Virus record (IMG/VR): IMGVR_UViG_3300035158_000183
Coordinates: 32,001 to 96,000 of that record
Origin: a virus
Length of the DNA stretch: 64,000 nt
Strand: one strand, 5' to 3'
Notes under the pieces: generated by a model
What the model was told of the DNA's origin: nothing
The model's database searches: none
Seen by the model: the letters and a program-made list of their open reading frames with translations, nothing else
Program-made: the position numbers and the translations under genes
Shown: positions 48,120-55,276 of the stretch, piece after piece
How positions within the stretch are numbered: position 1 is the stretch's first letter
Layout: every line of letters starts with the position of its first letter

Positions 48120-49253
48120 CTATCTCGAAATCCACTTACTCCAGATCTCTATGTTGTTCTTAATACGTGGGATTTCGGCAGTCTCGTAGGCCTTCTCGGC
48201 CATCTGGATAGCCTTCTCATACTGCTTCAGATGGTTGTATACCATCGACAGCAGGTCATAGCGATCTACCATGTATATTCGCGGGGTTACGAACAGCCTG
48301 CACTTGGGCATCTCCATCTTGACACAATGCTCCAGCCACACCTGAGCCTCGTGATAGTGCTGCTGTTTGTAAGCCAAGTCAGCCATGTAGTAGTAGGCCT
48401 CTGCCATGGGTGGGAACTCTTCTATGGCCTTCACGAACTGCTCCCGGGCATTGTCTCGCTCGCCCCGATAACTGTAGCAAGTACCCATATTAACCCTTGC
48501 ATGCCAGCGCTCCTCATCCCACTTACTGATGAGCAGATACTCCTTGTAGGCTTCTATAGCAAGGGTCCACTTGGCGTTCTCCTTATAAGCATTCCCTAGA
48601 TAAAACCAGGAGCGTGAGTCCTGAGGATTTTGCTTTACGGCATCCTCGAACCCCTCTATCGTTGCCTTGGAGCGCTGCACATCACGAGCTTTCTTCGCAG
48701 ATTTGTTCTGATGCTGCTTATTATGCTCTACCACAAACTGCTCTGATACGTACTTCTTATGCTTCTGTAGCATCGGCGCATTGTGCTGAGAGTTCTGATA
48801 GCGTATGTTGGGCCCTAGAAGCCGAGCTTGTGTATACATAAGCTGTGGTATACCATACTGGTCTGGCTCGAAGTGTATCCATACTTCCACACCATCCTGA
48901 TTCTTACTCTCAGCCTCCTCAATAACTTTGTGTATATTCTCAGGATTCTTCACAGTCTCATGGCCATCAAGTATGAGCCTCCAGGTTCCTGGCTTGCAGA
49001 CAGCAAGCACCCTGTTCCTGGCTTTCGAGAAACCCCAGTCACCCTTATTCTTCCGAGGCCCCTGCTTGGCTAGCTCCTCATCCAGGTAGTGAGGAATTAC
49101 CCGGTCGGCTAACCTCTCAGCTATCTCACGAGTTCCGTCATTGGAGGCCTCGTCCACACCAATGATTACTTCGTCCACATGGTCCCTGACAGACTGTATT
49201 GTCTGCTCGAGGGTGTCCGCCTCATCCTTTACGATCATCGCTAGTGATAACAT
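48120..49253 (-). CDS. GT2 glycosyltransferase with TPR repeats (protein O-glycosyltransferase type)
   Basis: LSLAMIVKDE, SNDGT, FSKARN, LILDGHE (DxD-like); about four TPRs (SWFYLGNAY, AEAYYYMADL). Confidence 0.88.
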   Translation of the reverse strand: MLSLAMIVKDEADTLEQTIQSVRDHVDEVIIGVDEASNDGTREIAERLADRVIPHYLDEELAKQGPRKNKGDWGFSKARNRVLAVCKPGTWRLILDGHETVKNPENIHKVIEEAESKNQDGVEVWIHFEPDQYGIPQLMYTQARLLGPNIRYQNSQHNAPMLQKHKKYVSEQFVVEHNKQHQNKSAKKARDVQRSKATIEGFEDAVKQNPQDSRSWFYLGNAYKENAKWTLAIEAYKEYLLISKWDEERWHARVNMGTCYSYRGERDNAREQFVKAIEEFPPMAEAYYYMADLAYKQQHYHEAQVWLEHCVKMEMPKCRLFVTPRIYMVDRYDLLSMVYNHLKQYEKAIQMAEKAYETAEIPRIKNNIEIWSKWISR

Positions 49254-49254
49254 A

Positions 49255-49770
49255 TTACACCGGATATTCTGTTTGTTTAAATACCTTGCTGGTTTTCAGG
49301 AAGAGCCTGATGTCGTTAGGTGTGACACTAGAGCACTCCCAGTTTTCTGTTTCGGGCACACCTGCTGCCTTCAGAAATTCTGCTATCAGCTCGAAGCAGG
49401 TCACCCTGGAGATGTTGTGAAACGGCTTGGTGATTTTGATCTTTAGCCATCTCCATATCATAATCCGGAATAGGCCCCAAAGCAAGTACTTTATGTCATA
49501 TTTGGTACCCACATAATTACGTATCTCTGGTAGGCCAAAACTGAGATCGGCAAGCGGCTCGTAGGTCTCGATGTAAGAGTACCTCTTCTTCGCCTCCTCG
49601 GCTGGTATCTTCACTACACGACCTAGTACATCGGCAGCCCACCAGCCTCCCCATAGAGGATCTTGGTACAGAAGAAATGCATGATTTACAGGCAGTTCCA
49701 AGACTCGGCGGATAGCTCTGCCATACCATTTTTCATGTGCCGCTAGACATATGCGAATATTAGAAGCCAT
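49255..49770 (-). CDS. Permuted papain-like NlpC/P60 enzyme (YaeF/YiiX-like)
   Basis: His before Cys: NHAFL ... GTKYD ... TCFELIA ... VTPNDI. Confidence 0.7.
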   Translation of the reverse strand: MASNIRICLAAHEKWYGRAIRRVLELPVNHAFLLYQDPLWGGWWAADVLGRVVKIPAEEAKKRYSYIETYEPLADLSFGLPEIRNYVGTKYDIKYLLWGLFRIMIWRWLKIKITKPFHNISRVTCFELIAEFLKAAGVPETENWECSSVTPNDIRLFLKTSKVFKQTEYPV

Positions 49771-51744: not shown

Positions 51745-51745
51745 T

Positions 51746-54700
51746 TTACGTCTCCATAGCTGCAGAAGCGTCAGCGATGAACCACGCGCTGACTACATAG
51801 ATATCGCCGTTACGATCATCGCTCGCATTCCCGGGCTTACGTCTCAATTCTAACCCAAAGTGGTCATCGGCTGCCATCTTAGTGCGGTCCAGAGTGATAT
51901 CGTCCTGGAATCTCTGGCGGATGGTATTAGGGACAGTGGCCGTCACCAAGGGGGTTTCGTCGTCTGCCTTGCTGAACTGCTCTCCATCCGCAACATACTT
52001 ACAGTTAGCCTGGAACACACACTGGCTCCCTGAAGTCTGTGTGGCGGCAGGCGCCATGATCAGCCTCAAGATCGGGTTGGTCGTGGACAGGTCGACATTA
52101 TTCGGGATTCTGAAAGAAATTCGTGCGTATTCCTCTGTTATGTCGTCATATGTCAGAGCTGGTGCATATGTAGTAGACAGGGTTCCTCTGCCTGCTCCAT
52201 TAAGGCCAGCAATAGAGAAGTCGTACGGCGTCAGACCAATCTTGATCTTCCCTAGAGTGATAGAACCTGTAGGCCCGGTCGCCCCTGTTGGACCTGTGGG
52301 TCCTGTCGGTCCCGTAACACCTGTAGGCCCCGTAGCACCTGTTGTTCCCGCACCGGTGGGGCCCGTTGGTCCCGTAGGGCCCGTGCTGCCATCGTTGCCA
52401 GCTGCCCCGGTTGGTCCTGTAGGGCCAGTCACCCCAGCAGCACCAGCCGCTCCAGTTGGACCCGTAGCCCCAGTTGACCCTGTAGCTCCAGCACTACCAG
52501 CAGGCCCGGTCGGACCAGTTGCGCCCGTCACACCTGCACCGGTAGGTCCGGTACTCCCAGTCGGTCCTGTTGGGCCTGTGCTTCCGGCCGCTCCGGCTGC
52601 TCCGGTAGGACCTGTTGGGCCGGTTACCCCAGCTCCTGTCGGGCCAGTCGTACCCGTGGGACCAGTCGGTCCCGTGGGACCAGTTGTTCCTGCTCCAGTC
52701 GGTCCGGTTACTCCAGTCGGACCTGTAGGCCCTGTCGCTCCAGTAGCTCCGCCGCCAGGACCCGTAGGACCAGTTGGTCCAGTAGTACCCGCACCCGTAG
52801 GCCCGGTTGGACCTGTTGGCCCCGTCGGACCAGTTGGGCCTGTGCCACCACCGCCTGAGCCTGTCGGGCCTGTTGGGCCCGTAGGACCTGCGGGACCTGT
52901 TGGTCCTGTCGATCCTGTAGGACCTGCTAAGTTGCCCTGTTTGACCCAACTGCCACTAACCTTCTCATAGAAATCACCCGTAGTACCGTCAAGGTAGAAG
53001 TCTCCATCAGAGCCTAGACCACCAGGTGGTGCGCCGGACCCCTCGTACCATTTTGATCCGGCAGTTCCAGTAGGTCCTGTGGAACCAGTAGATCCTGTCG
53101 CGCCTGTGGATCCTGTGCCACCCGTGCTACCTGTCGGTCCGGTAGCTCCGGTAGGACCAGTTGCGCCTGCTGAACCTGCTGGCCCAGTAGCGCCCGTATC
53201 ACCCGTAGGGCCAGTAGTGCCCGCCCCTGTAGGCCCAGTACTGCCCGTTGGTCCGGTCGGACCTGTGCCTCCTGTAGCCCCGGTTGCGCCCGCTCCTGTA
53301 GCACCAGTACTGCCAGTAGGACCAGTAGCTCCCGTGCCGCCGGTTGCCCCGGTAGCTCCTGTGGGCCCGTCATCACCTGTTACACCCGTAGGTCCGGTTG
53401 GGCCTGTAGGTCCATCATCACCTTGGGCGCCTGGTATGCCCGCCGCTCCTGTAGCTCCTGTGCTTCCGGTTGGACCTGTCGGTCCAGTTTCTCCCGTTGC
53501 GCCTGCATCTCCCGCTGAGCCTGTACTACCTGTGGTGCCTTTCGCTCCGGCGGGACCAGTCACACCCGTAGGCCCGGTTGGACCAGCTGCTCCAGTACCA
53601 CCTGTTGTGCCTGTACTACCCGTGGCTCCGGTCGGTCCTGTCGCTCCGGTTGCTCCTGCACCTGTTGGGCCCGTGGCGCCTGTAGGGCCAGTCTCACCTG
53701 TAGTGCCTGTGGTTCCGGTAACTCCCGTAGCCCCAGTAGGTCCATCGTCACCTTGGTCTCCCTGCGGACCTGCAGAACCTGTAACCCCTGTTGGTCCCGG
53801 ATTGCCTTGTAGGCCCTGAGCACCTGTTGGACCTGTAGCTCCAGTCGCTCCTACTCCGGTCGGACCAGTTCCACCTGTTGGTCCAGTAGGACCTGTAGCT
53901 CCTGCCCCTGTAGGACCGGTTGTTCCTGTAGGGCCAGTCGTCCCCGTCCCGCCTGTTGGGCCTGTTGCCCCAGCTCCTGTAGCTCCAGTTGCTCCTGTAG
54001 GTCCTGTAGGTCCAGTTTCACCACGATTACCTTGGTTCCCCTGGGGGCCCGTAGGGCCAGTGGGCCCCGATGGACCCGTTGCCCCAGCTCCTGTAGGTCC
54101 AGTAGAGCCGGTAGAGCCGGTAGAGCCGGTTAGTCCAGTATTACCCGTAGGACCTGTTGGTCCCGTATCGCCTGTTGGGCCTGTTGTGCCTGTAGAGCCT
54201 GTTGGGCCTGTAGAGCCTGTCGGGCCTGTGCCGCCGGTCCCACCTGTAACACCCGTAGGCCCCGTAGGCCCTGTAGGGCCAAGTATATTGCCTTGTTTTA
54301 CCCAGGCACCGCCCGTCTTCTTATAGAAGTCGCCACTAACACCATCTAGGTACATATCTCCATTGGTACCAAGTCCTGCTGGTGGCGCTCCTGAGCCTTC
54401 AAACCATTCTGATCCTGTAGGGCCGGTTGAACCTGTAGGTCCAGTAGAGCCAGTGCCCCCGGTCGGACCTGATGCACCAGTTGGACCCGATGGCCCAGTA
54501 GATCCCTGAATACCTTGGTTGCCTTGTGGTCCAGTAGGCCCTGTTGGACCATCATCGCCCTGGACGCCTTGTGCTCCAGTTGGGCCGGTTGCTCCCGTTG
54601 GGCCTGTGGCACCCGTCTGGCCTGTCGCACCTGTTGCTCCAGTGGCACCTGTGGCACCAGTGGCCCCAGCTCCGGTAGGGCCTGTGGCTCCTGACGGCCC

Positions 54701-55276
54701 TGTGGCTCCTGTACTTCCTGTCGGACCTTGCGGACCAGGTACGCCCTGATTCCCTTGTGGTCCAGTCGTACCAGTAGGTCCAGTCTCGCCAGTCGTACCA
54801 GTCGCACCAGTACTTCCGGTGGAACCTGTTATCCCTGTGGGCCCGGTCTCTCCTGTAGCACCCTTGGCTCCGGTAGGTCCAGTAGCACCGGTTGGTCCTG
54901 TATTGCCTTGTAAACCTTGTGAGCCAGTAGATCCGGTAGCCCCAGTTGGACCGGTAACTCCAGTACTTCCTGTAGTTCCCTTAGCACCCTGTGAACCCAC
55001 AGGTCCTGTGGGTCCTGTAGATCCCGTAGGACCCGTAACTCCCGTAGAACCTTTCGCTCCGGCTGCACCCGTTACACCTGTAGGACCTGTCTGCCCCGTG
55101 GCACCAGTAGAACCGGTAGCTCCATCTGCACCTGTCGGTCCAGTAATTCCGGTAGGACCTGTGGGTCCGCCTGCAGGACCTGTGGGCCCAGTAGGACCAG
55201 CCGGACCTGTGGCTCCGCCAGAAGGGTTATATAGGTCTAGGTCTTCGCGGAGAAGTGGGTTGTACCTACGTGGCAT
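51746..55276 (-). CDS. Collagen-like fibre protein (Gly-X-Thr) with two globular inserts and a C-terminal globular domain
   Basis: About 900 aa of GPT/GAT/GST triplets. Confidence 0.92.
52265..55215 (-). repeat. Degenerate 9-bp collagen triplet repeats, including an exact (GTAGAGCCG)x3 at 54102-54128
   Basis: Directly visible in the DNA. Confidence 0.9.

Follow-up and report, generated by a model that had tools for sequence, protein, structure and literature searches.

Why would a phage encode a glycosyltransferase a short distance from the gene for a very long collagen-like fiber, and which molecule would that enzyme modify? The question is raised by a 64,000-nucleotide stretch of viral DNA (positions 32,001 to 96,000 of IMG/VR virus record IMGVR_UViG_3300035158_000183; the whole stretch is referred to as the window), in which six open reading frames (ORFs) on the minus strand at 48120-55276 run from a collagen-like fiber gene, the first, to a gene for a 377-amino-acid (aa) protein with a GT2 glycosyltransferase (GT) domain and TPRs (GT2-TPR), the last, the two genes being spaced 2.5 kb apart on the same strand. 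Both had been placed on this strand and at these positions by an earlier reading of the letters without database searches (the sequence-only reading), and both placements are correct. The answer considered probable here is that the GT2-TPR protein is a soluble protein O-glycosyltransferase, similar to SgtA of C. difficile, that acts on the phage's own collagen-like fiber. This reading is built on gene anatomy, the fold of the enzyme, homology to a clostridial enzyme family, and gene linkage surveyed in two directions, from which transfer, acceptor residue, sugar donor, timing, and physiological role are inferred; the identity of the sugar, the timing relative to trimerization, and the biological role are held much more loosely than the reading itself.

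The collagen-like fiber

The fiber gene and its parts, as obtained from the translation and a parse of its repeats, are as follows:

51746-55276, minus strand: collagen-like fiber gene, 1176 aa, the predicted acceptor substrate
55217-55276, minus strand: non-collagen N-terminus, 20 aa
54407-55216, minus strand: collagen segment 1, aa 21-290 (270 aa), ~77 nm
54281-54406, minus strand: globular knuckle 1, aa 291-332 (42 aa), with a motif that includes GD.YLDG..GDFY.K..G.WVKQGN
53051-54280, minus strand: collagen segment 2, aa 333-742 (410 aa), ~117 nm, containing 6 of the 12 GA breaks
52925-53050, minus strand: globular knuckle 2, aa 743-784 (42 aa), near-identical to knuckle 1
52259-52924, minus strand: collagen segment 3, aa 785-1006 (222 aa), ~63 nm
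51749-52258, minus strand: C-terminal globular domain, 170 aa, its predicted role taken from position only

A simple parse yields 294 Gly-X-Y triplets in 20 runs, with Pro (115), Ala (68), and Ser (41) at the X position and Thr at the Y position in 213 of the 294 (72%), and the protein matches Pfam Collagen with an expectation value (E) of 9e-92. At 0.286 nm per residue, the three helical segments would measure 77 + 117 + 63 nm. These counts agree with the sequence-only reading, which had described a Y position dominated by Thr, about 300 triplets, a filament of roughly 250 nm, and recurring GA interruptions; the last number 12, are of the form GxT-GA-GxT, and may act as hinges. Chance can be excluded as the source of the collagen ORF, since it is the only one in the 174-kb contig and none was found in 80 random viral loci (751 kb). 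Bacterial collagens in general have Thr as their most frequent Y residue (31.6% overall and 48.3% in Gram-positives; PMC8968730), so Thr at this position alone is no sign of glycosylation.

The collagen repeats are encoded inside a block of phage structural genes, as is expected of phage tail fiber and whisker proteins, and the product is accordingly predicted to be a collagen-like tail fiber or whisker of the phage. Matches to PHROG tail-fiber families are driven by the repeats and were not counted as independent functional evidence. The C-terminal domain is, from its position, likely a trimerization or receptor-binding head; it has no match in Pfam or in a PDB sequence search, and the closest clusters in the Atlas consist of viral proteins of ~170 aa without a name, one cluster (with a score of only 0.87, and treated as a lead) carrying Collagen on 35% of its members. 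The sequence-only reading had likened the fiber to the BclA proteins, a likeness that holds for the Gly-X-Thr region but not for the rest of the protein, where no BclA-type C-terminal domain was matched and where the surroundings are phage structural genes; membership in the BclA family was rejected on these grounds.

The GT2-TPR enzyme

The enzyme gene (48120-49253, minus strand) encodes two domains:

48714-49253, minus strand: GT-A/GT2 catalytic domain, aa 1-180 (Pfam PF00535, alignment invariants, AlphaFold2 model)
48123-48686, minus strand: TPR domain, aa ~190-377, a predicted acceptor-protein binding module (Pfam TPR, Foldseek)

Glycos_transf_2 (PF00535) is matched at residues 3-137 (E 3.7e-11) and several Pfam TPR families are matched at ~200-360. 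The AlphaFold2 model, which was built with a 30-sequence alignment (pLDDT 94.6; a single-sequence model with pLDDT 50.6 was discarded), has a Rossmann-like beta/alpha core followed by helical repeats at 184-376. In a Foldseek comparison with the PDB, SunS and ThuS are its top matches and cover the entire chain (E 6e-17 to 5e-15), ahead of the TPR domains of OGT and SPINDLY; by sequence, a PDB search matched GmaR of Listeria in its glycosyltransferase domain (E 1.9e-6). Across 37 family members (47-63% identity; alignment A2), D34, S37, D39, F75, R79, N80, D96-G97-H98-E99, and H157 are invariant, and the invariance of these catalytic-site residues speaks for a working enzyme. The phage family and the clostridial family described below have in common the nucleotide-binding D-x-x-S-x-D, an F-S-x-A-R-N motif, and a His farther downstream.

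SunS and ThuS (PDB 7MSN, 7MSK) likewise join a GT-A domain to a helical-repeat substrate-binding domain; they act on peptides, modifying Cys or Ser of small bacteriocin precursors, and are 13-20% identical to the phage enzyme. Only the fold is common to them, and the assignment of the phage enzyme as a glycocin transferase was rejected; no bacteriocin-related family was found in the neighboring ORFs, those below 80 aa (a possible precursor peptide) having been left unscreened. GmaR, in which a GT domain of ~180 aa is followed by TPRs, O-GlcNAcylates flagellin (PMC9638930), and it resembles the phage enzyme both in this N-terminal arrangement and in having a filament-forming structural protein as its substrate. 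It differs in its length (637 aa, with extra linker and antirepressor domains) and in acting on flagellin, not collagen. All of the characterized compact-plan enzymes that were found (SgtA, GmaR, and SunS/ThuS) glycosylate proteins or peptides.

The first database search returned ~38 close relatives at 45-63% identity, all of them from metagenomes. Roughly half of the close relatives (P0010-P0044; L036, L042, L044) are GT2-TPR-methyltransferase fusions of ~546-553 aa, and further relatives of 587-648 aa have differing C-terminal extensions; the copy in the window has no methyltransferase. Several relatives are neighbored by sulfotransferase, GT1/GT4, GT2, or radical-SAM genes. Methyl-, sulfo-, pyruvyl-, and glycosyl-transferases would fit the elaboration of a primary O-glycan, none of them being tied to the fiber.

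Homology to a clostridial SgtA-like family

SgtA has 358 aa, with a WcaA-like GT domain at 1-255 and four TPRs at 262-358, and in vitro it transfers beta-O-linked N-acetylglucosamine (GlcNAc) onto Thr of peptides from the collagen region of BclA3, using UDP-GlcNAc only and preferring Mn2+ (PMC7157674). The initial database search with the window enzyme gave weak full-length matches to ~358-aa proteins of Romboutsia and Agathobaculum (25% identity over 310 aa to the Romboutsia protein by BLASTP, E 1e-18). Searches seeded with these two proteins each retrieved several thousand clusters (~355-365 aa) named after Clostridia and, in some cases, relatives of Bacillus and Paenibacillus (including Romboutsia, Paraclostridium, and Clostridium); no C. 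difficile name was among the matches listed in either search. An alignment of the phage family (A2) with the clostridial family (A3) by hhalign extended over 348 columns and both domains (probability 99.9%, E 1.3e-34). Judged from this alignment, the homology of the phage enzyme family to the clostridial ~358-aa TPR-GT2 family extends from end to end, and the clostridial family fits the published description of SgtA.

The genomic setting of the clostridial enzymes was also surveyed. The Agathobaculum gene is immediately followed by a gene for a 511-aa BclA-like Gly-X-Thr collagen, and no such collagen gene follows the Romboutsia enzyme gene. In a survey of 80 species of Clostridia (L279-L358), a collagen ORF with at least 15 triplets and at least 30% Thr at Y was present within 6 kb of the TPR-GT2 gene in 52 (e.g., L041), nearly always ~50-150 bases past the enzyme gene and on the same strand. 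The SgtA-BclA pairing thus appears to be a general clostridial module that extends well beyond C. difficile. The analogy with SgtA and BclA3, which the sequence-only reading had drawn, is strengthened both by the full-length homology and by this pairing.

The phage and C. difficile systems are alike in the order and size of the enzyme domains (a short GT2 domain and then TPRs, 377 aa here versus 358 aa), in the type of acceptor (Thr in Gly-X-Thr repeats, a prediction in the case of the phage), and in the closeness of the enzyme gene to the collagen gene. They differ in that the two genes abut in C. difficile and are separated by four ORFs here; in the setting, which as read from the genes would be a virion fiber and not a spore surface protein; in the collagen, which is three to four times longer here and has knuckle domains; and in the enzyme, which has D-G-H-E in place of DxD and an identity of ~24-25% when compared via the clostridial family.

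Linkage of enzyme and collagen in phages

A co-occurrence survey of the kind that the sequence-only reading had proposed was run both ways and was positive in each direction. Starting from the enzyme, the contexts of close relatives were scanned for collagen runs in six frames, and 16 independent loci of the window's clade (47-63% identity) were retained after near-identical enzymes had been merged and at least 3 kb of visible upstream sequence had been required. A Gly-X-Thr collagen ORF was found upstream on the same strand in 14 of the 16, ending 0.8-5.3 kb before the GT gene and ranging in size from 198 aa to 2577 aa, and no collagen ORF was found downstream of the GT gene in any of the 16 loci. 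For most of the intervening genes, no homologue could be detected at any other locus (the four in the window have scattered homologues only), and many of the fibers have no common non-collagen domain. Since the intervening genes and the non-collagen domains differ among loci, the linkage tracks the collagen repeat and not a fixed operon.

Starting from the collagen, 80 IMG/VR loci (718 kb) were collected with a (GPT)4-coding DNA pattern and searched with hidden Markov models of the enzyme family, and 80 control viral loci (751 kb) were collected with an arbitrary 14-base pattern. A GT2-TPR homologue was detected in 13 of the 80 collagen-seeded loci (complete in 11 and truncated at the end of the locus in two) and in 0 of the 80 controls, whose pattern differs from the GPT pattern in base composition (Fisher p 1.4e-4). 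In 12 of the 13 the enzyme gene was no more than a few kb from the collagen and on its strand, often abutting; in L104, where the locus end leaves the GT domain only, there is no collagen ORF above the threshold. Tblastn with a fixed database size gave 6 matches in the 0.72 Mb of GPT loci versus 7 records in 2.3 Gb of isolated-phage genomes. The flanks visible in the surveyed loci were short, and the two loci that were checked proved to be genuine phage structural modules. Nine of the enzymes from this survey come together in the tree (support 100) as a second phage clade, which is separate from the window's clade and groups weakly with the clostridial clade; one further enzyme falls inside the clostridial clade, one is long-branched and unplaced, and the tree was built without the two truncated ones.

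Several individual loci are of interest in their own right. A 2577-aa frame in L042 (1490-9220, plus strand) has 756 Gly-X-Y triplets (86% Thr at Y) and ends ~0.8 kb before a GT2-TPR-methyltransferase gene; in its place, the source gene caller reported a Pro/Val-rich protein of 1524 aa encoded by the other strand, and such mis-annotation may affect giant phage collagens systematically. The cultured Tunturiibacter phage Tunturi_5 (L167, PP885688; 309 kb) encodes a distant GT2-TPR protein (gp35, 7992-9095, 24% identity), and its gp29 'tail fiber' (12804-16903), ~3.7 kb from the GT gene on the opposite strand, has at least 110 Gly-X-Y triplets with 60% Thr at Y. The Manatee Spring podovirus (L166, MW202524) has, just after its major capsid gene, a gene for a 761-aa protein with an N-terminal GT2-TPR-like part (3147-5432) in a run of glycosyltransferase and methyltransferase genes, with no collagen nearby; this cluster may be directed at capsid glycosylation. 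The GT2 plus TPR fold is also present in giant viruses (Indivirus, Harvfovirus, pithoviruses, cedratvirus, and marseillevirus in BFVD), often within proteins that have additional domains. Collagen-like proteins are encoded by giant viruses as well, and a parallel pairing could exist in them.

Weighing the alternatives

A number of findings weigh against an SgtA-like enzyme that modifies the fiber. The clostridial family has L-D-A-D-D at the position where the phage clade has an invariant L-D-G-H-E, the first Asp of the DxD motif being kept and the second being His. Such D-x-H metal sites occur in other GT-A enzymes (e.g., GT27). The four ORFs that separate the GT gene from the collagen gene are without explanation, and two loci of the window's clade, L038 (= L030) and L045, have the GT gene without a collagen gene in the visible 4.6-10 kb upstream. 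A sister clade of viral GT2-TPR proteins retrieved from IMG/VR with the GT (L001-L012; 21-25% identity), which the tree places apart from the window's clade, has no collagen linkage. The survey counts overstate independence through kinship among the loci, and the unlike base composition of the GPT and control patterns affects their comparison. Finally, Thr at Y is frequent in bacterial collagens without known glycosylation (PMC8968730).

Three rival explanations were considered, and all were graded less likely than glycosylation of the fiber. The collagen-free loci bear most directly on the idea that the GT2-TPR protein targets another phage protein (the capsid, the tail tube, another fiber, or the product of one of the four small ORFs) and that its proximity to the collagen stems from a plastic fiber/accessory region. 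In L038 (8855-11134), a tandem pair of GT2-TPR paralogues comes directly after T4-like head genes (Peptidase_S77, a Gp23-like major capsid protein, and a gp13-like protein) with no collagen in 10 kb, and the distant homologue in the Manatee Spring podovirus stands beside the major capsid gene in its glycosyltransferase/methyltransferase cluster. Mycobacteriophages provide a precedent, as the C-termini of their capsid and tail-tube subunits are glycosylated (Freeman 2023, as cited in PMC12619734); as presented in that citation, they resemble the predicted phage system in having phage-encoded glycosyltransferases beside structural genes and O-glycans on virion proteins, and differ in that the targets are subunit C-termini without collagen. 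This explanation is nevertheless unlikely, as the collagen linkage in 14 of 16 loci persists despite non-homologous intervening genes and many different fiber heads and recurs both in the second phage clade found by the collagen-first search and in Clostridia. L038 and L045 form one subclade (SH-aLRT 98), consistent with a single retargeting or relocation, and may mark a substrate switch. The sequence-only reading had named retention of the GT2-TPR gene without the collagen as one observation that would count against it; within the visible flanks, such retention is seen in this subclade and not in the other 14 loci.

The two remaining explanations concern what the protein does. It could be a host-takeover 'moron' that acts on an envelope glycan or a protein of the host, or on a small molecule (e.g., in superinfection exclusion), as is suggested by the category of PHROG 13126 ('moron... 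beta-1,4-glycosyltransferase') and by the GT9, pyruvyltransferase, and sulfotransferase genes of the same genome, which could act on host polysaccharide. Neither the sequence nor the model indicates a membrane segment or signal peptide, however, and the N-terminus is the first strand of the GT fold; the fold is like that of peptide glycosyltransferases and not GtrB-type enzymes, and the gene lies within the late structural string, with neighborhood statistics that tie the enzyme specifically to collagen, which together make this explanation very improbable. Least credible of all is the idea that the protein has lost its catalytic activity and serves the collagen fiber as a TPR-based chaperone or assembly factor. 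The replacement of the second Asp of DxD (LDGHE versus the clostridial LDADD) would be in keeping with it, and phage fibers often require dedicated chaperones encoded downstream, but the invariance of D34, S37, D39, R79, N80, D96, H98, E99, and H157 is what is expected of a working site, and the methyltransferase fusions and the sulfotransferase or GT1/GT4 neighbors of the relatives fit a modification pathway.

Proposed mechanism and significance

If the GT2-TPR enzyme does glycosylate the collagen-like fiber, it would act late in infection, when the TPR superhelix would hold newly made fiber chains, probably before or during triple-helix formation by analogy with the action of SgtA on short peptides. 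The GT-A domain would move a sugar from the host nucleotide-sugar pool to Thr at the Y position of Gly-X-Thr, with up to ~213 sites per chain and ~640 per trimer. By analogy only, the sugar would be GlcNAc, and the DxH-type metal site may mean another donor. The product would be a three-segment fiber of ~250 nm that is densely O-glycosylated, and other glycan-modifying enzymes of the same genome could extend the primary sugar. The roles considered for such a coat are helix stabilization, hydration, shielding from proteases or defenses, and adhesion. Helix stabilization has a physical parallel in the cuticle collagen of Riftia, where glycosylated Thr, not hydroxyproline, occupies the helix-stabilizing Y position (Mann 1996, as cited in PMC6953826); that collagen, as cited there, is an animal extracellular one with unrelated enzymes, so its relevance is physical only, and glycosyl-Thr may play a similar part here.

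A more speculative extension, doubtful as a whole, is that the fiber is a bottle-brush, mucin-like whisker. Hundreds of O-glycans per chain would be primed by the DxH-variant enzyme and elaborated by methyl-, sulfo-, pyruvyl-, and glycosyl-transferases (fused or adjacent in relatives, 17-25 kb away here), and the glycan coat, not the protein tip, would form the functional surface, for adhesion to host capsule or particles or for shielding. The logic of pairing enzyme and collagen would then have passed from endospore surfaces to phage virions or the reverse, and perhaps involve giant-virus fibrils as well.

A full-text literature search returned work on SgtA, mycobacteriophage virion glycosylation, and reviews of prokaryotic collagens, with no description of a phage collagen fiber paired with an SgtA-like enzyme. 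So far, phage-encoded enzymes are known to glycosylate virion proteins only in mycobacteriophages, on the capsid and the tail tube. The findings presented here suggest that these phage collagen fibers are probably sugar-coated, and point to a second, apparently widespread virion glycosylation system in which both the enzyme family and the acceptor motif are defined, spanning large environmental myoviruses and at least one other phage clade, with Tunturi_5 as a cultured candidate carrier. Uncultured phages and giant viruses commonly encode proteins with the enzyme fold, which are annotated only as 'glycosyltransferase 2-like', and the proposed activity provides a functional hypothesis for many such viral TPR proteins that lack annotation. 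It would also extend the SgtA/BclA logic from spores to viruses and, for collagen biophysics and biomaterials, offer natural hydroxyproline-free triple helices (up to 756 triplets, in L042) together with a single soluble modifying enzyme.

Neighboring genes

Between the collagen and GT genes are four ORFs (260, 212, 195, and 171 aa), with gaps or overlaps of a few bases throughout the string:

50962-51744, minus strand: 260-aa ORF directly after the collagen gene, with a weak match resembling the second domain of Mtd
50339-50977, minus strand: 212-aa ORF that contains a Cys4 zinc-ribbon-like motif; L022 has a homologue
49770-50357, minus strand: 195-aa ORF without a match in family searches; homologue in L022
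49255-49770, minus strand: 171-aa ORF just upstream of the GT gene, a candidate permuted papain-like (YiiX/Peptidase_C92-like) cysteine hydrolase

The close packing makes one shared transcript for the six ORFs plausible; a promoter and terminator scan found a number of sites not above chance. The other ORFs around the string are phage structural genes, including one for a 983-aa protein with a Peptidase_S74 intramolecular-chaperone domain, and several match PHROG 'virion structural protein' entries. A megablast search of 20 kb against isolated phages gave no match.

L043 (7021-9484) has three tandem paralogues of the 260-aa ORF, flanked by the gene for a 450-aa protein that contains collagen and by the GT gene, and this family seems to travel together with collagen fibers. 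The 171-aa protein is, from the structural comparison (TM-scores of 0.70-0.80 to C92-bearing Atlas clusters), probably a hydrolase of the kind listed above. Its homologues (found by phmmer) lie immediately beside the GT gene in L016 and L044 and 1.5 kb off in L023, on either side, and the protein may be a loosely linked partner of the GT.

Farther away, 17-25 kb from the GT2-TPR gene, the window contains a set of glycan-modifying genes that comprises a double GT9, a further GT9-like protein, a pyruvyltransferase-methyltransferase fusion, and a sulfotransferase (23444-27966, plus strand; 30474-31616, minus strand). Their products could act on the fiber glycan or on host polysaccharide. A 354-aa ORF at 19348-20412 (plus strand) contains a GcrA cell-cycle-regulator domain (Pfam E 3e-6), which hints at an alphaproteobacterial host and would put an SgtA-like module far from the spore-formers.

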